From assembly GCA_032128375.1 (NCBI GenBank), contig JAQBGU010000135.1, forward strand, positions 7,213 through 71,212: a stretch of 64,000 nucleotides of DNA. The letters are read 5' to 3'. Under the pieces are notes generated by a model that was not told the origin of the DNA, searched no databases, and worked only from the letters and a program-made list of their open reading frames with translations. Below, in pieces: positions 1 through 47,581 of this stretch. Within the stretch, counting starts at the first letter, position 1, and every line of letters begins with the position of its first letter. The position numbers and the translations under genes are program-made. Origin of the DNA: Deltaproteobacteria bacterium. GTDB taxonomy: Bacteria; Myxococcota_A; UBA9160; SMWR01.

Positions 1-236
1 AACTCGAGAATTTCTTTGTCGGTTCCGGGCTCCTGGGCACCGAATTGGTTACACGGAAAACCCAGAACGGTGAGGCCATCGCGGTTCTTGTGAAGTGTAT
101 GCAGACCTGCATACTGGGGAGTGAGGCCTCATTGACTCGCGACGTTGACGACCAGGCAGAACTGGTTCTGATAATCCGACAATCTTACGGATTCTCCCTG
201 GATCGAAGTCATCTCGAATTCGTGCATATTCGCCAT
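1..236 (-). CDS. gpx: glutathione peroxidase, selenocysteine-containing (N-terminal part; gene runs off the window start); in-frame TGA at 131..129 read as Sec
   Basis: Missing from the ORF track because of the internal TGA. ATG at 236..234 is preceded by GGAGGG with an 8 nt spacer. The translation is [35 protein letters not shown]-[TGA][43 protein letters not shown]. This fits the GPx/BtuE signature VNVASxCGxTPQY ... [14 protein letters not shown], with the TGA exactly where the catalytic Cys/Sec sits. The frame stays open and family-like after the TGA. Confidence 0.85.
97..114 (-). promoter_or_regulatory. bacterial SECIS-like hairpin downstream of the gpx UGA
   Basis: The minus-strand RNA reads GUAUGCAGGUCUGCAUAC, starting 15 nt after the UGA. 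The arms GUAUGC/GCAUAC are complementary and close an AGGUCU apex. The 12-nt core UGCAGGUCUGCA is identical to the apical part of the E. coli fdhF SECIS as I remember it (GGUUGCAGGUCUGCACC). Confidence 0.7.
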
Positions 237-280
237 AGGAATTTCCCTCCGGTAGATGAACCGACGATAGGATCCAGGTC

Positions 281-612
281 ATGGGTGGGCAACCCGAAGC
301 CGCGGTGAATATCACCGCGAGCGATCGAACGGATTGGCGGGAACGCTTGCTCGCGCGCCTGGAGGCGGGTGGGCGCTATCGCTCCTGGGTCTTGTTGGCC
401 GCGCTGGCGGGGATGTTCGCTGCGACATTCCCGATCAGCATTCTTGCCGTTTCGCTCGGCACGATCGCACGCGGGCCGGGCTGTCCGCTGTCGCATTGGT
501 GTTGGCAGCGGTGCTCTTGCGCGAGACCGAACGTCAGCGAGTCCGATTCGATCTGCTCGGCGCGGCGATGCGAGCCTCTGAGCCGGGCGCCTACTTCGAA
601 AGGACGGAATAA
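281..612 (+). pseudogene. remnant of an EmrB/QacA-type MFS transporter gene (internal deletion/frameshift plus truncation)
   Basis: The frame starting at 281 reads ...RYRSWVLLAALAGMFAATFPISILAVSLGTIA, typical of the N-terminus/TM1 of drug-exporter MFS proteins, and loses sense near 470. A second frame (ORF 334..612) reads GLSAVALVLAAVLLRETERQRVRFDLLGAA, resembling the TM6/central-loop region of the same family, then stops. Only about 330 nt is present where a gene of roughly 1.5 kb is expected. Confidence 0.45.
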
Positions 613-1523
613 ATCAGCAGCCCCTGTTGTGTATCTCGGGTGACGCTGATGGTCCGAACGCCGATCGACCGATGGATCCGTGTCCGCCCACTCGTGTCGG
701 CCGCCACCTGTGAAACCAGTGGTTCGATTCGGCGCTCGAATGCATCCGCGCGGGATCCGAATACGGCCTGGTTGATCCTATGGATCGCGTGGTTGGCTTT
801 GTCTGGCGCTGTGCGTCGCCTGGGTGCGATCGGAGCGCTCACAGTAATCACTTCGGAGCGTACCACGTAGCGCGTCGTGCCGGAAGTTGCGATTTGTGCC
901 GGATTGCCGTCGGGCATTTTCCCCGTTCGCCACTGAGTGACGCCCGGGTCCGCCGCGGACAGCGGTGTCCGAAGCCGCCTCACAATGGCTTTTGCGTCGA
1001 AGCTCTGGAAGCTCACGCTGGAATCCGTCTGACCCCGGTCGATCGCAGCGGGTGGGGCGCTCTGCCGGCGACCCCTACCGGCGCCCGTCGGCCTGGGATT
1101 GCGGGCTAGCGCTCGCGCACTGCGCTCGGCTTGCAATGCGTCGACGGCTGGTTTGGGCAGCAGGCTGAGTAAGAATCCAGGCGTTCGCTCGTAGATTCGC
1201 ACTTCACCGGGTGGCACCATCGCGCGAGTGATCACCACCACTTCGTCTCGGGAGGTGAAGTACAGGTACAGCTGGTCGCGACTGACGATGTGCAGCCACT
1301 CCGGCCGGCCCTTACGCGTTACGATGTCGCGGACCGCAGAATCATATTCCAATTCAAGTGCGAGCCGCTGTTCGCCCTCTGGAGTGGCGGTGGACAGGCT
1401 GCGCGCGACTACATCGCCGAGCCTGTAGCCGTGTTGCACGGCGCTGCAACTCGCCAGTGTCGACGCGATGACGAATAGCAGAGCAAGTTTGATCGAGCCT
1501 GCACATGTGAAGCCAGCGCGCAT
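591..1523 (-). CDS. hypothetical lipoprotein
   Basis: 310-aa ORF with the signal peptide MRAGFTCAGSIKLALLFVIASTLASC (lipobox LASC). I recognise no family. Confidence 0.6.
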   Translation of the reverse strand: MRAGFTCAGSIKLALLFVIASTLASCSAVQHGYRLGDVVARSLSTATPEGEQRLALELEYDSAVRDIVTRKGRPEWLHIVSRDQLYLYFTSRDEVVVITRAMVPPGEVRIYERTPGFLLSLLPKPAVDALQAERSARALARNPRPTGAGRGRRQSAPPAAIDRGQTDSSVSFQSFDAKAIVRRLRTPLSAADPGVTQWRTGKMPDGNPAQIATSGTTRYVVRSEVITVSAPIAPRRRTAPDKANHAIHRINQAVFGSRADAFERRIEPLVSQVAADTSGRTRIHRSIGVRTISVTRDTQQGLLIYSVLSK

Positions 1524-5767: not shown

Positions 5768-6101
5768 GGAAACCTCCCTCCTCATACACAATACACATAC
5801 GCGATACGTGCAATGTCAATCCGAATTAACTCCGTCGGGCACTGGCCGACGTCCGAGAAGATGGGACCCACGGAAACAGAAGATACAGCGGGGATCGCGC
5901 GTGACTGGCAAGCGAGCGTCCGAAGGAGTACTCCTCGACTCTGCGCCAGCTGTTGTTCAAAACGCAAGAAGAATCACGCGCACCCGAGTCGCTTCTGCCC
6001 GTAGTGATTCTCTCCCGACGCGGGCAAGATTGGACTTTCCGGCTTGCGAAGGCTCGGGTGACAGTTGGAAGGAGTCTGTGAGGAGACGGCTGACGGGTCG
6101 A

Positions 6102-6773
6102 ATGAACTTTTTCGCGCTTGGGACGCTTGTCTTGGGGCTGGCCCCTGCCAGCCCGGCCCGGTCGAGCGACACCGACAGCGACGGAAGCTGCCCCTATCGA
6201 CGTGTGTCGTTGAGTACGCCACAACGTCTTCTAAAGGCACCCGGTGACGGCACTCTACAAGCGGAATTTCTTGGCGTGTTTGGATTTCATCTCGGGCGTG
6301 CCGGCTTCGAGGTGATCGAGCCGACCCAATCGGGGTTCACTTGGGAAATATTCAGCCAGGTGGAACCGCTCGGAGACGGGCGGTTGGCTTGGAGCTATGC
6401 GTTGCTCCCGATGCCTGGCCTGGCGGATGGGGTGATCGAATTTCCCACGTTTTCGGTCGTTGAACGACCCGGTGGCGAGCGTGTGCAGTTCACGACGTAT
6501 CACGGGCTGGAAAGCCTTCGCTCCACCGATTTTCCCCTTCGCGCAGCACTGGCATCAGAGAAGCTCGCAAACTTGTACCTCCCAGTGGCGCTGAAGCTCT
6601 GCGCTGAGCGGGGCTCGATATTGGAGATGGAGGCGGCTCGGCTGGAGCGCATCCGCAGCGAACTCAGCGCCGAAATCGAACGCGTTGCGGCGCGACGCTC
6701 ACGACAGAACAAGCACCTGGAGTTGAAAACCGAGGACGGAATGCAGGACCCGCCCGGGTCAGCGAGCGATTGA
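6102..6773 (+). CDS. hypothetical secreted protein
   Basis: Within ORF 5760..6773, the signal-peptide-like start MNFFALGTLVLGLAPASPA is at ATG 6102. The C-terminus is coiled-coil-like (EMEAARLERIRSELSAEIERVAARR). I recognise no family. Confidence 0.5.
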   Translation: MNFFALGTLVLGLAPASPARSSDTDSDGSCPYRRVSLSTPQRLLKAPGDGTLQAEFLGVFGFHLGRAGFEVIEPTQSGFTWEIFSQVEPLGDGRLAWSYALLPMPGLADGVIEFPTFSVVERPGGERVQFTTYHGLESLRSTDFPLRAALASEKLANLYLPVALKLCAERGSILEMEAARLERIRSELSAEIERVAARRSRQNKHLELKTEDGMQDPPGSASD

Positions 6774-10427: not shown

Positions 10428-11399
10428 TTGAAACCGTTGGTGCCGAAAACACGCCCTGACAACCCCCTCGTTTCGATTGTCGTGCCCGTTCTCAACGAGG
10501 AGGGCTGCGTCGGCGAACTCGCACGCCGTGTCGCGGCGGCTCTGGCGACTGCGAACACCCGTTACGAATTGCTTTTTGTCGACGACGGCAGCCGGGACGG
10601 CACGGCAGCGGCGATCGCCGACCTCCGCAGATCGGACCCCAGCGTGAAGACGATTCGTTTCACCAGGAGCTTCGGCCATCAGGCCGCGCTGGCTGCCGGG
10701 TTCAAACACGCAGCTGGTGATGCGGTCGTTATCATGGACGGTGACCTGCAGCATCCACCCGAGTTCATTCCCACGCTGATCAGCGCCTGGCTCGAGGGGA
10801 TCGACGTGGTCAGCACGATCCGTCGATCGCCCGCCGATTCGCGCTTGGATTCCAAGGAGCTTCTCGGGCGCGCCTTCTACCGGGTCATGTCCGCACTGAC
10901 GCCGATTTCCATCACGCCGGCCGCGGCTGACTTCCGCCTATTGGACCGTCGCGTCGTCGACGCGTTCAATGGGCTCGAGGAGCGCTTCATTTTCGCGCGC
11001 GGCCTGATCCCGTGGCTGGGTTTCGAAGAGGTCTATTTCGACTACGCGGTAGGCGATCGTTTTGCCGGCCGCAGCAAGTATCGGTTCTGGTCGATGCTTC
11101 GGCTGGCGCTCGATGGGATCTTCTCGTTTTCGGTAGTACCGCTGCGGCTGATCTCGTTGCTGGGTTTCGGGACCACATTGTTTGGGATCGGGTTCGGGAT
11201 CTTTTCCGTGTTTTCGTACCTGGCGGGCAACGTCGACGGTACGGGATGGACGACACTCGTCGTGCTGATCCTGACTTTTGGCGGGATCCAGATGCTCTCG
11301 ATCGGGATCGTCAGCGAATACATCGGCCGGACCTATGAGGAAGTGAAACGCCGTCCGCGCTACGTGATCGACTCTACGGCTGGGCTCGATCGACGGTGA
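10428..11399 (+). CDS. GT2 polyprenyl-phosphate glycosyltransferase (GtrB/ArnC/CsbB-like)
   Basis: VSIVVPVLNEE ... LLFVDDGSRDGT ... VIMDGDLQHPPEFIP, plus two C-terminal TM helices and EYIGRTYEEVKRRPRY. It has a TTG start, and its stop overlaps the next gene's GTG (GTGA at 11396..11399). Confidence 0.9.
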   Translation: MKPLVPKTRPDNPLVSIVVPVLNEEGCVGELARRVAAALATANTRYELLFVDDGSRDGTAAAIADLRRSDPSVKTIRFTRSFGHQAALAAGFKHAAGDAVVIMDGDLQHPPEFIPTLISAWLEGIDVVSTIRRSPADSRLDSKELLGRAFYRVMSALTPISITPAAADFRLLDRRVVDAFNGLEERFIFARGLIPWLGFEEVYFDYAVGDRFAGRSKYRFWSMLRLALDGIFSFSVVPLRLISLLGFGTTLFGIGFGIFSVFSYLAGNVDGTGWTTLVVLILTFGGIQMLSIGIVSEYIGRTYEEVKRRPRYVIDSTAGLDRR

Positions 11400-13516
11400 G
11401 CCGTTGGACGGTCGCGACCGCGATCGCCACGGCGCTGCTGTGGATCTCGCTGGGGACCCAGGCGTCACTGCCGACGCTGACCCGCGGCGCCGAGGATTGG
11501 TCTGGTGACTTCCGCTCCTACTACCTGCCCAACGCCGAGTTCGCGGCGAACCAGCTAGCGGAAGGACGCCTTCCGTTGTGGAATCCGTACCAGGGCGCGG
11601 GTGGGCCGTTCCTGGCGACGATCCAGCCGGGCGTCTTCTACCCGCCCAACTGGCTTCATCTGCTGCTGCCGTCTGCAACGGCATTCCTTGTGTTGATCGC
11701 ACTGCACCTGGCACTCGCGGTCGTGACCGCGAGCGCTCTTGCGCAACGCCTGGGCGCGTCGCCGATCGGTGGAGCAGTAGCGGGGCTGGCCTACGCGACA
11801 TCGTTTCAGCTGATTGGCAGCGTATGGACCCCACCGCTGGTTTACACTGCGTCGTGGATGCCGGCGGTGTTATTCGCTGTTGATCGGATCATCGATCGAC
11901 CCTCAGCGAAGTCGACGGCGCTGCTTGCGGCAGTGACCGCGCTTCCCGCGCTCGCGGGCTGGCCGTATACTCTGATGCTGACAGCACTGACCTGCGCGAT
12001 GTATGCAGCCACTCGCATGCTGATGGGGCTGGTGCGCGCGCGAGCGATTCCGTGGCGCGTGGGTGTTGCGCTTTCGGCCGGGGCGGCGATCGGCCTGCTG
12101 TTGGCGGCGCCGCAGTTGTACCCGGCATCGGAGTTGCTGGGGCGCAGTTGTCGCGCGTTGGGCTCGATCATCGAGGAGCAGGCCATCTTCGTGCCGGGTC
12201 CGCACGATCCGGAGATATTCATGAGAAGTATTCTCAGAAGCGGATTCAACGATGGCGTTCCGGGTTACGCGGCCTTGCTGCTTTCGCCCCTGGCGCTGTT
12301 GCTGCCGGGTCCACATCGGGGTCGCGTCGCGCTGCTGCTCGCCATCGGGGGCTTCGGGTTGCTCGCATCCTTCCCCGGCTCGGTTCCAGTCTACGGCTGG
12401 TTGCGGGAACTGCCCATTCTCGCTGATTTTCGATTTCCGTACCGGTACCGGCTGCTGTCGACGCTGGCACTCTCGATCGCCGCCGGCGTTGGCGCATCTC
12501 ACCTCCAGTACGCATTGCGCCGCTACTCACACGCTGGTTCCGCTGCTGGGGTAGTGGCGCTGATGGCTGCACTGGGATGGGGCAGCCTCCCGGTGCTGAA
12601 CACGGCAAGTCGCTTTGCGCGCGATTTCGGTCCGTCTCAATCGGTGGCCGAGCAGATCGCACAGATCGGTGCGGATTGGAAACCCGAGCCGTACGAGCGT
12701 GTCTACTGGACCGGTCGATCCCACAAGCTCCGCGATCCGAGCAACGTGTTCGTTGTCCACGACATGGAGCCGTTGACATTGGCGCGAACCGCACAATTGT
12801 TGACGTTCTTCGAAACCGGACGAGCCAGGACACTCCTCACGCTGAAGCCATCCAGCGATCCTCGCAAGAAGTACGAGGATTGGGTGGCAGCCCCGTTCTT
12901 CGGTTGGCTGAACCTTCCCGGTGACAGTGCACGGGCTGCGATCCTCGACGTGTTCTCGATCGGAACGATTGTCGACCGCGCGCCGCCGTATTGGCTGACC
13001 GACCGCTACGAGCGGATCTCGCCTGCCGGTGCCGAGTCGTCGGTCTTCCGCAACCCTCACGCGCTGCCCCGCGCGTACCGGGTCGCAGTTGCCATTGCGG
13101 AGCCGGCGAAGTTGGCGGACGCGTTGCGCCTGATGACATCGGAGCGTTTCAATCCACGCTCGATGGTGCTGTTGGACAACCCGCCCGCCCGGCTCTTGAC
13201 ACGCCGCCGCCCCGTGCCGTTCGACCCGAGCGGCGTCGAAATCGAACGCTATCTCCCAGATCGGGTCCGGCTGCAGACACGCGGCGCGACGGCGGCGATC
13301 GTCGTGCTGACCGACGCGCACTTCCCAGGCTGGACGGCGAGCTTGGATGGACAGCCGGTCGAGTTGTATCGGGCGAACGCGAATTTTCGCGGTGTTGCGG
13401 TCCCCGCCGGCGAACATGTGGTCGAGATGTACTACGCACCGCAATCATTGGCGTTCGGCAGCTGGCTGGCGGCGTTGGGCGCGCTTGGGATCGCGGTCGC
13501 GGTGTGGCGAAATTGA
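11396..13516 (+). CDS. YfhO-family membrane protein (GT-C-type glycosyltransferase)
   Basis: 706 aa and polytopic. The N-terminal region LAEGRLPLWNPYQGAGGPFLATIQPGVFYPPNWL is the YfhO-type signature as I know it. It is translationally coupled to the GT2 gene. Confidence 0.7.
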   Translation: MSRWTVATAIATALLWISLGTQASLPTLTRGAEDWSGDFRSYYLPNAEFAANQLAEGRLPLWNPYQGAGGPFLATIQPGVFYPPNWLHLLLPSATAFLVLIALHLALAVVTASALAQRLGASPIGGAVAGLAYATSFQLIGSVWTPPLVYTASWMPAVLFAVDRIIDRPSAKSTALLAAVTALPALAGWPYTLMLTALTCAMYAATRMLMGLVRARAIPWRVGVALSAGAAIGLLLAAPQLYPASELLGRSCRALGSIIEEQAIFVPGPHDPEIFMRSILRSGFNDGVPGYAALLLSPLALLLPGPHRGRVALLLAIGGFGLLASFPGSVPVYGWLRELPILADFRFPYRYRLLSTLALSIAAGVGASHLQYALRRYSHAGSAAGVVALMAALGWGSLPVLNTASRFARDFGPSQSVAEQIAQIGADWKPEPYERVYWTGRSHKLRDPSNVFVVHDMEPLTLARTAQLLTFFETGRARTLLTLKPSSDPRKKYEDWVAAPFFGWLNLPGDSARAAILDVFSIGTIVDRAPPYWLTDRYERISPAGAESSVFRNPHALPRAYRVAVAIAEPAKLADALRLMTSERFNPRSMVLLDNPPARLLTRRRPVPFDPSGVEIERYLPDRVRLQTRGATAAIVVLTDAHFPGWTASLDGQPVELYRANANFRGVAVPAGEHVVEMYYAPQSLAFGSWLAALGALGIAVAVWRN

Positions 13517-35660: not shown

Positions 35661-37964
35661 ATGACGAAGAGCGCGGATCGGACAGGGCAGGGGTCGCGCA
35701 TCGGCGCGATGGTGGGATTGTTCGCGGCGGCCATCGCTGTTCGCGCGCTACCAGCGCCGACTGTTCTGCTCGGCGATCGCGTTCAGCCGTTTGGCGGCGA
35801 CGCGTTCTACCACCTGCGCCGAATCGCGTATTCGATCGAGCAATTCCCTCATGTACTCGAATTCGATCGCTACGTGAACTTCCCGACAGGCGCGATTGCG
35901 ATCTGGACACCGGTTTTCGACTGGCTGATCGCCGCGCTGGCGATCTGCCTCCGAGCCGAGCCGGCATCCCTCGAGATGGAACGAATCGCGGTCTGGGTTC
36001 CGCCGGTTCTTGGAGCAGCGACCGTCGTGGTGCTGTATCGACTGGCGGCGCGCACCTTTGGCGAGCCGATCGGGCGCACGGCTGGTGCGCTTTTGTGCAT
36101 CAGTTCCGCGCACTTCTGGTACTCGCAGATCGGCTTCGTCGACCATCACGTTGCGGTCGCGCTCGTCACTACGCTGCTGCTGGGTCGCGCGATCGCGTAC
36201 CTGGACGCGCAGTCGGAACCTGCCCCGGCATGGCCGTTGGGGCTCGCGCTCGGCGCAGCATTGTGGATCTGGCCCGGTACGCTACTTCACGTCGGCATCA
36301 TCGAAGCCGCACTGCTGATCGCGCTCTTGACGGAGGCCGACGCATCCGCGGCCGCTGCACGGCGTTTCACAAACGTGCAGTGCATTGCACTGCTGTTGAT
36401 GCTGCCCTCCGGTGTCACAAACAGCTGGCCGCAATGGGGGGCCTTCAGCCCGGTCGTGCTCTCACTGTTTCAGCCCTGGCTATTCGCCACATTGACACTG
36501 TTTGGGTTCGGGTGCAGCGCACTGTGGCTCCACACGCGGCTCGGCGCGTCCGTCGGGAGGCGCGCACTCAGCGCTGCAGCAATCGGCTTCACATTGTTGC
36601 TGTGTAGCCTTCTTGCGATTCCAGAATTGTGGATCGGTGCGCACGATGCGTGGCAGTGGTTCGGAAAGACGGAGGTTTTTCAGGCCCTCGTCAGTGAATC
36701 ATTGCCTCTGTTGGAGCTCGATGGCGATTTCAGCACCCAGGTGGCCTCGAGTCGCCTGTCCTACTTCGTATTTCTGTCTCCGATCGCGCTGCTCTGGGCG
36801 GCGACCAGCGCCTGGCGAGGAGAACGTGAGCGCGGACGATTGTTGCTGGTCGGCTGGACCGCGGTGCTGCTGGCCGCGACGCTGTGGCAGAAGCGCTTCT
36901 TCAATACCTCCTCGGTCGGCCTGGCTCTGCTGATGGCATGGACACTAGCCGGCGTACATCGCGCATGGACCGCGCGAGCGGGTGGCCACTCGCGGCTCGC
37001 GAGCGCGGTCGTCGTATCTGTCACCGCGCTGCTGTTGCTTCCGAGCGTCGCGAGTTTTCGCGGCTTCCTGCCGAACTGGCGCGGCGACGGTACGATCGCA
37101 GGTTCTCGCCTGCAACTCGCGCAGAATGTCGCGATTGCGACTTCGGAATATCTGCGTCGAGAAACCCCGACGACTTCCGGATGGCTGGACGCCGATGCTT
37201 GGCCCGAGTATTCCGTGATGGGTCCGTGGCCGATCGGGCACGTGATCGAATACGTCGGACGCCGACCGACAGTGACTGACGGATTCGGCGACGACCTGGG
37301 GCCCGAGAACTTCGAACGAGCGGCACGTTACTATGCTGCTGAAGAGCCAGAGGCACTCGCGATCGCAGAACGACTCGGTGTTCGGTATGTAATCGCGCAG
37401 CGCAGCGCAACTTTTCTGGGGAGAGAACCCGGCGCCGCCAGTATGCTGACCGCTTTGTTTGTTCGCGATGGGTCTGAGAGGCCGCTCCCTTCGACCCGAG
37501 ATGCCGGCGCTATTGCACCACCTTCGCCGACGACCTTCCCGGCACTGCATCGCCACCGGCTCATCTACGAATCCGCGCCTCCCGGAGAACGGAGTCCCGA
37601 GCGCGAGTCGTTGTTCAAGCTGTTCGAGATCGTGGTTGGGGCCGAGATCGTGGGTCGCGCGACGCCTGGTGGGCGTGTAAGCGCCGCTGTGGAGCTGAAG
37701 ACGAATCGGAAACGCGATTATCTCTATTTCACGAGCACGACTGTTCGGGAAGATGGCGGCTACACGCTACGCCTCCCGTATGCCAATGGAGGGCCAAACA
37801 AGCGCGGTGTCGTCGGGGTAGGCATGCATTACACGATCGCGTGTGGGGATGCGAAGCGTCCCATCGGCGTGACGGAGCGCGACGTTCAGTCCGGAGCGAA
37901 GCTCCGCGTACCGGAACTGGACTGTCAGTCAGGAATGAAAAAGAGCGATGCTTGGACGCAATAA
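35661..37964 (+). CDS. STT3/AglB-like oligosaccharyltransferase-family membrane protein (divergent)
   Basis: The first loop FGGDAFYHLRRIAYSIEQFP resembles the archaeal AglB D-x-YYHLR motif. There are about 13 TM segments and then a soluble C-terminal domain. At the WWDYG position the sequence reads MGPWPIGHVIEYVGRRPTVTDGFG. Confidence 0.6.
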   Translation: MTKSADRTGQGSRIGAMVGLFAAAIAVRALPAPTVLLGDRVQPFGGDAFYHLRRIAYSIEQFPHVLEFDRYVNFPTGAIAIWTPVFDWLIAALAICLRAEPASLEMERIAVWVPPVLGAATVVVLYRLAARTFGEPIGRTAGALLCISSAHFWYSQIGFVDHHVAVALVTTLLLGRAIAYLDAQSEPAPAWPLGLALGAALWIWPGTLLHVGIIEAALLIALLTEADASAAAARRFTNVQCIALLLMLPSGVTNSWPQWGAFSPVVLSLFQPWLFATLTLFGFGCSALWLHTRLGASVGRRALSAAAIGFTLLLCSLLAIPELWIGAHDAWQWFGKTEVFQALVSESLPLLELDGDFSTQVASSRLSYFVFLSPIALLWAATSAWRGERERGRLLLVGWTAVLLAATLWQKRFFNTSSVGLALLMAWTLAGVHRAWTARAGGHSRLASAVVVSVTALLLLPSVASFRGFLPNWRGDGTIAGSRLQLAQNVAIATSEYLRRETPTTSGWLDADAWPEYSVMGPWPIGHVIEYVGRRPTVTDGFGDDLGPENFERAARYYAAEEPEALAIAERLGVRYVIAQRSATFLGREPGAASMLTALFVRDGSERPLPSTRDAGAIAPPSPTTFPALHRHRLIYESAPPGERSPERESLFKLFEIVVGAEIVGRATPGGRVSAAVELKTNRKRDYLYFTSTTVREDGGYTLRLPYANGGPNKRGVVGVGMHYTIACGDAKRPIGVTERDVQSGAKLRVPELDCQSGMKKSDAWTQ

Positions 37965-38197: not shown

Positions 38198-38286
38198 GCT
38201 CCACGACAAGAGCAAACCCGGCGAGAGCCGGGGACGCAAAGCCAGTGCCCAGCCTCGGGAATCCGAGTCGGGTCGAACGGCTGCCG
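38198..38286 (+). promoter_or_regulatory. c-di-GMP-I (GEMM-I) riboswitch-like aptamer
   Basis: CCACGACAAGAGCAAACC-[CGGC GAGA GCCG hairpin, GNRA loop]-GGGACGCAAAGCC-[second hairpin CUCGG GAAU CCGAG with extended stem]. This parallels the V. cholerae Vc2 aptamer as I recall it (CACGCACAGGGCAAACC-AUUCGAAAGAGU-GGGACGCAAAGCC...). It ends immediately before the AAAGGAG RBS of the 38300 gene. Confidence 0.75.
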
Positions 38287-38299
38287 AAAGGAGTTGTGC

Positions 38300-38917
38300 A
38301 TGACCGCTCCCCGTCGACTGACAACCGCTTTCCTCGTCGCGGCGATCTCCGTGGCTTCCTGTGGTGCCACGCCTTTCGCTGAACTGGCGAGTACGAGCGA
38401 GAATCCTCCGCTCGGTTATTCGCCATCCGCGCTCAGCGGGGACGCGCTCGCTGCGTCTCGTGTGTTGGGAGGGCTGAACACCGGGTTGCTTCCCGATGAA
38501 GTCGCGAGGCTCGGCGTCGCAATCGTCATGGAGTCGCGACGAGCTGGGATTCCGATGGAGTTGGTGCTGGCGCTGATCCAGGTCGAAAGTAGTGGCAACG
38601 CCTTCGCGGTGTCCGGTGTCGGCGCGATCGGGCTCATGCAGCTTCGCCCGAGCACGGCCGAGGAAGTCGCTGGCCGACTCGGAATCCGCTGGATGGGCGC
38701 TGCAACATTGTTCGAGCCGGTGACGAACGTTCGGCTGGGCGTCGAGTATCTCCGCCAATTGATCGAGCACTACGACAGCGTTTCGATCGCACTCGCCGCC
38801 TACAACTGGGGGCCGGGAACGATCGGGAAGAGGCTGCGGCTGGGCGAAGCGATCCCGGCCGGCTACTCGGATAAAGTCATGGCAAAATATCGCCGACCCC
38901 TGCACCGCGCGATCTAG
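38300..38917 (+). CDS. lytic transglycosylase (SLT domain) lipoprotein
   Basis: Lipobox SVASC. Catalytic motif LIQVESSGNAFAVSGVGAIGLMQL ... AYNWGPG. The ATG at 38300 is 6 nt after AAAGGAG. Confidence 0.9.
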   Translation: MTAPRRLTTAFLVAAISVASCGATPFAELASTSENPPLGYSPSALSGDALAASRVLGGLNTGLLPDEVARLGVAIVMESRRAGIPMELVLALIQVESSGNAFAVSGVGAIGLMQLRPSTAEEVAGRLGIRWMGAATLFEPVTNVRLGVEYLRQLIEHYDSVSIALAAYNWGPGTIGKRLRLGEAIPAGYSDKVMAKYRRPLHRAI

Positions 38918-45561: not shown

Positions 45562-45652
45562 AGGCTCTCCAACATGACCTGCCAAAATGGCGGCTGGCTC
45601 GCTTGCTGACCACGGGGCCCCACCTGAATCCGCTGATGCGAATCCCCATGCG

Positions 45653-45706
45653 TCTCTCAGTTCTCTCAGTTCTCTCAGTTCATCCAGTTCATCCAGTTCA
45701 TCCAAT
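45653..45706. repeat. 9-bp tandem repeats: TCTCTCAGT x3 then TCATCCA(G/A)T x3
   Basis: Read directly. The array sits in the region shared by the two divergent ORFs. On the minus strand it would read ELDELDELDELRELRELR, and on the plus strand SLSSLSSLSSSSSSSSS. Confidence 0.9.
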
Positions 45707-45775
45707 TCTTCTCTGAGTACATCTCCCGATGCGGAAAGATGCGGAAAAGGGGCACGGATCTTACCATCAGTTGCA

Positions 45776-47581
45776 ATGGGGATGTCAGAGGCGATCGAAA
45801 ACTCAGCGCAGCGCATTTACGAAAGAAGACTGAGGGCGCGCGAACTCGACGCGGAAAGGCGTGGTCGGCGCGCCTCGATCACGTCGAATCTGCGCCTTGT
45901 CGTGTTTTTCTCGGGGGTGCTGATCGCCTGGCTGGTGTTTGGCACGCGCTCAATGGCAGCTGGCTGGCTCGGGCCGCCCGCGGCCACGTTTGCTGTGCTG
46001 CTGGTGGTACACGACCGGCTGCTGACGCGAAAAGATCGAGCGCTGCGTTCAGTGGCGTTCTACCAGCGCGGCCTGGATCGGCTCAACGCCAGTTGGTCGG
46101 GTGGCGGGGAGCCTGGCGAGCGGTTCCGGGATGCGCACCATCCCTATGCCGATGATCTGGATCTGTTCGGTGAAGGATCGCTATTCGAGCTGTTGTGCAC
46201 CGCTCGGACCCGCGCGGGTGAGGAGCGTCTGGCCCAGTGGCTACTGGAGCCTGCGGCTCCCGATGCGATTCGGGCGCGGCAGGAAGCCGTTGCGGAACTA
46301 CGCGGCCGCCTCGACCTGCGCGAGGATCTGGCGCGGTTGGGCGATGAGGTGCGGGCCGGCTTGCACCCCGAGGCGTTGAGCAACTGGGGCAACGCTCGGG
46401 CAACGCTGGACTCGCGAGCGTTGGCCGTTGCCGCAGCCGCCATGGCGGGACTGACCGTTGCCGGACTCCTGGTGTGGATCTTGACGCCGCTCGGTGCGTT
46501 TCCCTTTGGCGTCGCGCTGCTGGTAGGGACGGGATTCACCATGACGGCAAACCGCCGGGTGTCCGCTGTGATCCGCGCGATGCAGGCGCCGGCCCGCGAT
46601 CTTTCGCTGTTTTCGCACCTGCTCGAGCGCTTGGAGAGCGAGTCCTATGCTTGTGCGATGTTGGTCTCGCTGCGCGCAGAACTCGATGAGGACGGCGCTC
46701 CGCCATCCAAGCAGATCGCTCGACTTCGCTTGTTGATCGATCTGATCGATGCCAGCCGAAATCAGCTGTTTATTCCGATTGCATGGATGTTGTTGTGGAA
46801 TCTGCAACTCGCCTGCGCGATCGACCGATGGCGCGTGAAGTGTGGTCCGGCGCTATCGCGCTGGATCGACGCGGTGGGAGAATTCGAGGCGCTCTCGGCA
46901 TTTTCGACCTTTGGCTACGAACACCCGGATTTCCCGTTTCCGGAAATCGTCGAAGACGCAGTGCATTTCGAAGGCACAGCACTGGGACATCCTCTGCTGC
47001 CAGCCGATCGTTGCGTCCGCAACGATCTGAGTCTGATTGCGCCATTGCAGGTCCTGATCGTCAGCGGCTCGAACATGTCCGGAAAGAGTACGCTGATGCG
47101 AACGGTCGGGACCAATACAGCGCTCGCGCTGGCGGGTGCTCCGGTGTGCGCCCAGAGCCTACGCCTGGCACCTGTGTCGATTGGTGCGTCGATTCGGATT
47201 CAAGATTCGCTACAGGAGGGGAGTTCGCGCTTCTACGCCGAGATCTTGCGCTTGCGCCAGATCACAGAACTCGCGCGCGAGCACGGGCCGGCGCTCTTCT
47301 TGCTGGATGAGATTTTGCACGGGACGAACTCACACGATCGCGGCATCGGTGCTGAGGCCGTTGTGCGCAGCCTGGTCAAATCGGGCTCGATTGGCATCGT
47401 CACCACCCATGACCTCGCGCTGACCCAGCTAGCCGATGCGTTGGAGGGGCGCGCTCGGAACGTCCATTTTCAAGATCACTTGGAAGAAGGCGTTATCAAA
47501 TTCGATTACCGGATGCACCCGGGAGTGGTGACCAAGAGCAACGCGCTGGAATTGATGCGAGCGGTTGGGCTCGAAGTCTGA
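45776..47581 (+). CDS. MutS-related ATPase (MutS domain V only) with N-terminal transmembrane segments
   Basis: The start is set at MGMSEAIENSAQRIYERRL (ATG 45776). Hydrophobic helices include LRLVVFFSGVLIAWLVF. The C-terminal ABC-type ATPase has VSGSNMSGKSTLMRTVG ... FLLDEILHGTNSHDR ... TTHDL. Confidence 0.8.
   Translation: MGMSEAIENSAQRIYERRLRARELDAERRGRRASITSNLRLVVFFSGVLIAWLVFGTRSMAAGWLGPPAATFAVLLVVHDRLLTRKDRALRSVAFYQRGLDRLNASWSGGGEPGERFRDAHHPYADDLDLFGEGSLFELLCTARTRAGEERLAQWLLEPAAPDAIRARQEAVAELRGRLDLREDLARLGDEVRAGLHPEALSNWGNARATLDSRALAVAAAAMAGLTVAGLLVWILTPLGAFPFGVALLVGTGFTMTANRRVSAVIRAMQAPARDLSLFSHLLERLESESYACAMLVSLRAELDEDGAPPSKQIARLRLLIDLIDASRNQLFIPIAWMLLWNLQLACAIDRWRVKCGPALSRWIDAVGEFEALSAFSTFGYEHPDFPFPEIVEDAVHFEGTALGHPLLPADRCVRNDLSLIAPLQVLIVSGSNMSGKSTLMRTVGTNTALALAGAPVCAQSLRLAPVSIGASIRIQDSLQEGSSRFYAEILRLRQITELAREHGPALFLLDEILHGTNSHDRGIGAEAVVRSLVKSGSIGIVTTHDLALTQLADALEGRARNVHFQDHLEEGVIKFDYRMHPGVVTKSNALELMRAVGLEV

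Follow-up and report, generated by a model that had tools for sequence, protein, structure and literature searches.

A probable selenocysteine-containing glutathione peroxidase with a bacterial-type SECIS hairpin in an uncultured Myxococcota-like bacterium

Introduction

Glutathione peroxidases (GPxs) with selenocysteine (Sec) at the active site were reportedly first recognized in bacteria by Kryukov and Gladyshev in 2004, in Treponema denticola. Here, we analyze a probable member of this group encoded on the minus strand at the very edge of a 64,000-nucleotide stretch of contig JAQBGU010000135.1 (Deltaproteobacteria bacterium, assembly GCA_032128375.1; we refer to the whole stretch as the window), in which a GPx reading frame is interrupted by a TGA codon and followed at once by a small RNA hairpin, a candidate Sec insertion sequence (SECIS). 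In the literature, bacterial Sec-GPx is represented by a single genome example, T. denticola, characterized by a UxxT motif and “predicted with high confidence” (PMC13188914, PMC9312934), and the Global Ocean Sampling (GOS) data add 40 Sec forms versus 3,287 Cys homologues (PMC2398784). The bacterial SECIS consensus is a stem-loop located directly past the UGA whose small apical loop includes a G (PMC1088965), and bacterial Sec-GPxs with a bacterial-type SECIS are an established predicted family (PMC1088965, PMC2398784, PMC13188914). By description, the known proteins from T. denticola, the Sargasso Sea, and the GOS data share with the window GPx the same Pfam family (PF00255), a U-G-L-T sequence that corresponds to UxxT, the position of the UGA, and a SECIS just downstream whose small apical loop has a G; nothing fundamental differs, and the window copy derives from a Myxococcota-like metagenome-assembled genome (MAG). 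The gene described here adds a member to this already known family and is no new class of system. Selenoproteome surveys have included bacterial Sec-GPx genes since 2004–2008. An earlier note, made by a model from the DNA alone, had called Sec-type GPxs uncommon in bacteria, which is right relative to the Cys forms but must be set against the fact that the family has been catalogued since 2004–2005.

Two further groups of GPx, and one well-studied SECIS, provide the framework for comparison. Cys-type BtuE and the 2-Cys thioredoxin-dependent GPxs, e.g., yeast Gpx3, belong to the same fold family and carry the same Gln, Trp, and Asn residues, and the Cys-type bacterial GPxs have the NVAS-x-[C/U]-G-x-T and FPCNQF motifs in common with the Sec forms; relative to the Cys-type enzymes, the Sec forms place Sec where the peroxidatic Cys would be, have lost the resolving Cys, and possess an insertion before the WNF motif. 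The mammalian Sec enzymes GPx1–4 resemble the window GPx in their active-site Sec, in their catalytic tetrad, and in the lack of a resolving Cys. Mammalian GPx4 has the motif VASQUG, as does the window GPx. Eukaryotic GPx mRNAs, however, rely on a kink-turn SECIS in the 3′-untranslated region together with SBP2 and eEFSec, whereas the element found here is a hairpin of the bacterial SelB type within the coding region. The reference point for such hairpins is the SECIS of Escherichia coli fdhF, whose minimal element comprises nucleotides 15–31, lies 11 nt from the UGA, and has a bulged U17 and an essential G23 and U24 (PMC8659212).

Results

A GPx reading frame interrupted by a single TGA

Translation of the minus strand and a match to Pfam GSHPx (PF00255) identify window positions 236..1 as the 5′ part of a GPx gene (78 codons plus 2 nt), the reading frame of which leaves the window at position 1. 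When Cys is put in place of U, the 78-residue window fragment aligns to profile positions 1–75 of GSHPx with 91.2 bits against a cutoff of 27 (E=3.9e-26). The missing 3′ codons are supplied by L001, a Logan contig from run ERR5010711 whose DNA is identical to that of the window; here the complete gene occupies 6307..5835 (minus strand) and consists of 158 codons including a TAG stop, which specify 157 residues, counting the predicted Sec36, with a C-terminus reading ...IAWNFTKFLVDKSGTAVERFGPQVTPEVIGEALSEYM. A Shine-Dalgarno-like GGAGGG at 245..250 (minus strand), 8 nt 5′ of the ATG at 236..234, is a candidate ribosome-binding site.

The TGA at 131..129 (minus strand) splits this gene as the earlier note had stated, since the mechanical list of open reading frames (ORFs) has as its sole entry at the locus a 35-residue ORF (129..236, minus strand) that terminates at the TGA; public gene calls likewise annotate the gene as a 35-residue fragment. 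Past the TGA, 121 more codons remain open in frame across the window and L001. The TGA is codon 36 and falls into the peroxidatic Cys/Sec column, both by the PF00255 match and in an alignment with TGC/TGT and TGA homologues, just as the first reading of the sequence had placed it. The catalytic tetrad of the full-length protein is complete (U36, Q68, W123, and N124): the codon for Gln68, part of a GAQEPG sequence and assigned by column conservation, lies at 33..35 (minus strand), and Trp123-Asn124 are encoded beyond the window, in L001. In a protein alignment of 218 homologues (119 Sec forms and 99 Cys forms), Gln occupies its column in 118/119 Sec forms and 98/99 Cys forms, and the Trp and the Asn are invariant. 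The Pfam match and the complete gene with its tetrad on L001 establish that the product is a GPx, in agreement with the note.

The same TGA recurs in genomes from three phyla

We scanned one genome per species, as defined by GTDB, with a DNA pattern for S-x-TGA-G-x-T-P-Q-Y-A-G and recovered at least 120 loci, where by our own estimate about 4 chance matches are expected. As a control, metagenome contigs were searched with the same pattern carrying TGH at the critical codon, which returned 7 TGA, 99 TGC, and 11 TGT genes. The pooled comparison used below contains 128 TGA forms (the window gene, the 120 genome loci listed, and the 7 metagenome genes) and 111 Cys forms. Every genome-scan match listed is a GPx gene with its TGA in the identical column, and in nearly all of the listed loci the frame runs on for ~117–127 codons past the TGA, with a contig end or a local disruption of the frame accounting for the few shorter cases. 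Two comparisons with orthologues that the note had called for, Cys codon versus TGA and conservation of the downstream frame, can thereby be made: the critical column holds TGA in 128 genes, i.e., in at least 127 besides that of the window, versus TGC or TGT in 110–111 genes that share the flanking motif, and the frame that is open for 121 codons here is open in all but a handful of the other TGA genes.

Among the matches listed, the carriers belong mostly to the Acidimicrobiales and Ilumatobacteraceae and include the isolates Ilumatobacter nonamiensis and Salinilacustrithrix flava; further carriers are Pseudomonadales-type marine Gammaproteobacteria (OM182, Halioglobus, and Azotimanducaceae) and Myxococcota. 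The Sec-GPx genes among these listed matches (L003–L122) are 42–99% identical to one another and fall into the Acidimicrobiia (Actinomycetota), the Gammaproteobacteria, and the Myxococcota. The window GPx is 60–67% identical to the nearest Sec-GPx genes recovered and about equally distant from all three groups, a pattern suggesting that gene and SECIS have spread together by horizontal transfer.

A perfect seven-base-pair hairpin follows the TGA

The candidate SECIS, GUAUGCA-GGUC-UGCAUAC, lies at 114..97 (minus strand) and is kept across the TGA forms. Its arms, 114..108 and 103..97, form a perfect 7-bp stem, closed by the 4-nt apical loop GGUC at 107..104, and the isolated 18-mer has a minimum free energy (MFE) of −7.1 kcal/mol. 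A spacer of 14 nt follows the TGA, and the stem begins at the 15th nucleotide; the loop begins 21 nt after the UGA and occupies nucleotides 25–28 counted from the U of the UGA. The hairpin covers the codons from the third nucleotide of Gln41 through Tyr-Ala-Gly-Leu-His-Thr47. The fold of the 81-nt window sequence taken alone is not unusual (z=−0.49); it is comparison with other genes, rather than folding energy, that makes the hairpin significant. A single copy of the 12-mer TGCAGGTCTGCA is present in the 64-kb window, at 111..100 (minus strand), where ~0.3 chance matches are expected when one mismatch is allowed. A long-range pairing of GAGGCCUC with GAUGGCCUC, present in the single-sequence MFE fold, was rejected as part of the element, as its downstream partner is not conserved in relatives.

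The apex of this hairpin is that of fdhF. In the E. coli genome, fdhF reads UGA-CACGGCCCAUCGGU-UGCAGGUCUGCA-CC, and the 12-mer UGCAGGUCUGCA is the same as window positions 111..100 (minus strand); the identity of the two apices, which the note had proposed, is thus exact over 12 nt. Both elements lie inside the coding region after the UGA, and both are read in the frame GCA-GGU-CUG (Ala-Gly-Leu). They also share the GGUC loop (G22–C25 in fdhF) with the G and the U that SelB contacts (G23 and U24). Most members of the Sec-GPx family have only GCAGGUCUGC in common with fdhF, and the family as a whole conserves no extended lower stem.

The hairpin is conserved at the RNA level in TGA forms

The association of hairpin and TGA holds across the family, with 128 of 128 TGA forms making 6–7 of the stem pairs (7/7 in 119 genes and 6/7 in 9) and the 111 Cys forms, which encode the same peptide motif, making 0–5 of 7 (Fisher p=4.5e-58, uncorrected for kinship). 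The family hairpin is GUAYGCA-GGUC-UGCRUAC and stands in the identical register in the TGA forms; the 18-mer has an average MFE of −8.3 kcal/mol among TGA forms and −1.3 kcal/mol among Cys forms. Synonymous sites within the hairpin are frozen. Ala44 is encoded by GCA in 121/128 TGA forms versus 10/111 Cys forms, Gly45 by GGU in 121/128 versus 11/111, and Gln42 by CAG in 128/128 versus 65/111, and residue 47 is Arg, encoded by CGU, in 123/128 TGA forms versus Glu or Gln in the Cys forms. At synonymous sites outside the hairpin (Gly38, Thr40, and Leu49), the TGA forms are as variable as the Cys forms. Pair 21–32, which is C-G in 125 sequences, becomes U-A in the window and in L077, a Myxococcales MAG; this C-G to U-A exchange is a compensatory change and is coupled to the replacement of Arg47 by His. 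An unguided RNAalifold analysis of 34 diverse members predicts the same helix. Judged from these comparisons of related genes, the hairpin is under selection as RNA and tied to the TGA.

Seven genes (L031, L048, L053, L076, L090, L115, and L116) have a variant hairpin, GUACGCC-GGG(U/C)-UGCGURC, at positions 18–35 after the TGA, in which the closing A-U pair is lost to give a 6-nt loop (C GGGU U) that retains G-G-U; the codons for Ala (GCC), Gly (GGG), and, in most cases, Leu (UUG) change together. Two further features were noted upstream of the helix. The codon for Pro41 is CCU in 76/128 Sec forms versus 12/111 Cys forms, among which CCG prevails (77/111); its third base is position 15 after the TGA (window position 117), 3 nt 5′ of the helix, and the window codon is CCC. 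The CCU bias may be an extra SECIS determinant or an effect of composition. RNAalifold also proposes a small helix, UGAGG/CCNCA (U1-A17, G2-C16, G4-C14, and G5-C13 counted from the UGA; alignment columns 7–23), which would sequester the UGA; since the codons and the scan pattern leave none of its bases free to vary, covariation speaks neither for nor against it.

Sec forms lack the resolving cysteine of Cys-type GPxs

We looked for a resolving Cys in the F-C block, ~44–46 residues past the peroxidatic residue. The corresponding column, that of residue 80, which we take to be the F-C block of yeast Gpx3-type enzymes, contains Cys in 92/99 Cys forms and in 0/119 Sec forms. The Sec forms have Ala (78), Val (37), or Ile (2) in this position, and the window GPx has Ala80. 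The Sec forms are further marked by an insertion of ~5 residues ahead of the WNF motif and by Arg-Thr/Ala after Leu46, where Cys forms have Glu/Gln-x. Median identities are 60% between Sec forms and 46% between Sec and Cys forms, and the nearest neighbor of a sequence is always of its own type. The protein also scores below the equivalog cutoff of the NCBIfam BtuE-type model PRK10606 (160 bits versus 270), and a Gpx7-type model likewise stays below its cutoff. By these sequence criteria, the Sec forms are a distinct clade without a resolving cysteine.

Genome context and other features of the window

ARAGORN found no tRNA in the window and no tRNA-Sec in 60 related loci, where a single ordinary tRNA-Arg was detected. 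Pfam scans of ~50 window ORFs revealed no SelA, SelB, or SelD domain and no other obvious selenoprotein, and a tblastn search of the window plus 1.6 Mb of loci with E. coli SelA, SelB, and SelD gave only one weak match, to a GTPase. A screen of the DNA for TGA codons with coding-like sequence to either side yielded nothing but neighboring genes that share a frame by chance. As to the identity of the organism, the nearest relatives of a MutS-like protein encoded at 45587..47581 are proteins of Myxococcota MAGs (83% identity), a match that puts the organism in a lineage known to be rich in selenoproteins, the Deltaproteobacteria in the old sense (PMC1794560).

Upstream of the GPx gene and on the same strand lies an ORF of 310 residues (591..1523, minus strand) without a Pfam match, separated from the GPx start by 354 nt; its N terminus, ...LALLFVIASTLASCSAV, resembles a lipoprotein signal peptide with a lipobox. 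At gathering thresholds, the sole Rfam match over the window is a cyclic di-GMP-I riboswitch (c-di-GMP-I, RF01051) at 38201..38288 (plus strand; 61 bits versus a gathering cutoff of 35), directly 3′ of which lies an ORF (38294..38917, plus strand) with a lytic transglycosylase SLT domain, an arrangement that suggests control of a cell wall–remodeling enzyme by c-di-GMP. The 767-residue product of 35661..37964 (plus strand) has STT3 N-terminal, AglB core-like, and AglB_L1 domains, a content that identifies it as an archaeal/eukaryotic-type oligosaccharyltransferase, here encoded by a Myxococcota-like genome. Finally, the region 10428..13516 encodes a family-2 glycosyltransferase and a YfhO-like membrane protein.

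Discussion

We consider it highly probable that the gene at the edge of the window encodes a functional Sec-containing GPx, with its UGA recoded by way of a SECIS, in an uncultured Myxococcota-like bacterium. Were the TGA instead a true stop, the locus would be a pseudogene or a 35-residue remnant followed by decaying GPx-like sequence, in keeping with what gene callers annotate, just the 35-residue fragment, and with the failure to find Sec machinery in the DNA searched (the window, L001, and the 1.6 Mb of loci). The 121 codons that follow are nevertheless open and keep every catalytic residue, and the same TGA with an open frame is found across three phyla, in at least 127 further genes whose pairwise identity is 42–99%, a recurrence incompatible with independent decay; we regard a true stop as extremely unlikely. 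A sequencing or assembly error that turned TGC or TGT into TGA might be suspected in any metagenome-derived source, but the window and the Logan assembly of ERR5010711 agree at this base, although the two may share reads, and the gene has every hallmark of the Sec clade (the hairpin, Arg/His47, and the lack of a resolving Cys), which leaves such an error a negligible probability.

Read-through of the UGA without Sec, either by genome-wide reassignment to Trp or Gly or by hairpin-stimulated insertion of near-cognate Trp or Cys, is very improbable on the evidence at hand. Database entry P0001 has a W at the codon, and, according to Liu et al. (1999) as cited in PMC8659212, part of the fdhF SECIS can promote UGA read-through in E. 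coli without selenium. The W of P0001 (ENA; L252, 211..390) is, however, a gene-caller artifact over a real TGA: in the DNA, the codon is TGA and the standard hairpin follows, and the caller evidently applied a TGA=Trp table to a short contig. Reassignment is contradicted by the use of UGA as an ordinary stop in this genome: TGA terminates 30 of 47 window ORFs with full-length domain matches. Moreover, catalysis would be lost with Trp or Gly in the peroxidatic position, Cys could be encoded more simply by a Cys codon, and the loop is GGUC, the motif recognized by SelB. We give similarly little credence, and less than to read-through, to the idea that the hairpin is maintained for a reason other than Sec (mRNA stability, translational pausing, or constraint on the protein) and is close to the TGA by coincidence. 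It is true that the hairpin sits in a well-conserved peptide, TPQYAGL, and that the 81-nt fold considered above is unexceptional; yet Cys genes with the identical TPQYAGL use other codons and form few of the pairs, the protein past Leu46 accommodates the 3′ arm (Arg-Thr/Ala versus Glu/Gln-x), and the position and loop of the hairpin fit the published bacterial SECIS consensus (PMC1088965, PMC8659212).

Several points weigh against recoding of the UGA as Sec by this hairpin. For every member of the family examined, Sec insertion at the UGA is itself inferred. Neither the 64-kb window nor the extra 6 kb of L001 contains selA, selB, selD, or tRNA-Sec, and no sel gene or tRNA-Sec occurs within 8 kb of the GPx gene in related loci; it follows for the loci searched that sel genes are not clustered with the GPx gene, and the organism presumably carries selA, selB, selC, and selD, as the note supposed. 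Even with a threshold of E<=10, window positions 1..400 match nothing in Rfam (release 15, with any SECIS models it includes). Part of the 5′ arm was preset by the scan pattern (CAR TAY GCN GG), so that only position 24 and positions 27 onward were free to vary, and the sequences are related and their counts not independent, so that the Fisher p value overstates their independence. Furthermore, one Cys form within the Sec clade, P0004 (L251, 301..480), still makes 7 pairs, which means that hairpin and TGA are not perfectly exclusive partners. P0004 is a GPx with a TGC codon from a Pseudomonadales MAG (GCA_022450845.1) that has no resolving Cys and reads EILEFAKSKY; 2 of the 7 pairs in its hairpin, GUACGCA-GGCC-UGUGUGC, are wobble pairs, and the U of the loop is lost (GGCC). 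It looks like a recent Sec-to-Cys reversion that carries a SECIS fossil.

The comparison with fdhF also has its adverse side. The bulged U17 of fdhF is absent from the window stem and from all 128 family members, and the spacer is 14 nt in the window versus 11 nt in fdhF, which places the loop at nucleotides 25–28 versus 22–25, i.e., 3 nt or one codon further from the UGA. A hairpin without the bulge and at this spacing falls outside the published rules for E. coli SelB, which is not expected to accept it (PMC8659212). Of the term “fdhF-like,” which the note had applied to the element, the apex and the GGUC loop survive, whereas the missing bulge and the displaced loop do not conform to it; the hairpin probably works like the fdhF apex, yet its sequence does not qualify it as an fdhF-type SECIS by strict E. 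coli standards.

If UGA is recoded as we propose, codon 36 would not be used as a stop, and the 18-nt hairpin would act as a bacterial SECIS bound by the C-terminal domain of SelB. SelB would carry Sec-tRNASec and GTP, and the hairpin would keep this complex tethered at the ribosome while the UGA moves into the A site, allowing Sec to be inserted in competition with RF2 and giving a 157-residue GPx with Sec36, Gln68, Trp123, and Asn124. As a resolving Cys is absent, the selenenic acid formed at Sec36 would most likely be recycled by direct attack of an external thiol or a thioredoxin-type protein; candidate reductants are glutathione, another low-molecular-weight thiol, and a thioredoxin-type protein. 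Recycling through an intramolecular disulfide appears unlikely from the sequence.

A broader proposal, tentative and in our estimation somewhat less likely to be right than wrong, is that the genes form one Sec-GPx clade with its own near-invariant SECIS (GUAYGCA-GGUC-UGCRUAC) that has been passed by horizontal transfer between Acidimicrobiia, marine Pseudomonadales-type Gammaproteobacteria, and Myxococcota, that this clade also switched from 2-Cys thioredoxin-coupled chemistry to a mammalian-like chemistry free of a resolving Cys, and that occasional reversions to Cys leave a SECIS fossil, as in P0004. If such a spread of one clade is real, the SelB proteins of very different phyla would accept the same minimal, bulge-less hairpin, and the hairpin and TGA would amount to a portable natural “Sec tag” and the enzymes to a model, as yet uncharacterized, of true selenium GPx chemistry in bacteria. 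Three by-products of our survey are of moderate interest and not categorically new: how broad the clade is, the near-invariant bulge-less SECIS in three phyla, and the loss of the resolving Cys. For the organism itself, correction of the 35-residue call restores a full antioxidant enzyme and marks the bacterium as a probable user of selenium. For the family, the at least 127 other species-level genomes and metagenome contigs provide a clean natural data set on what SelB requires of the hairpin that it binds and on the changes that substitution by Sec brings to GPx chemistry.

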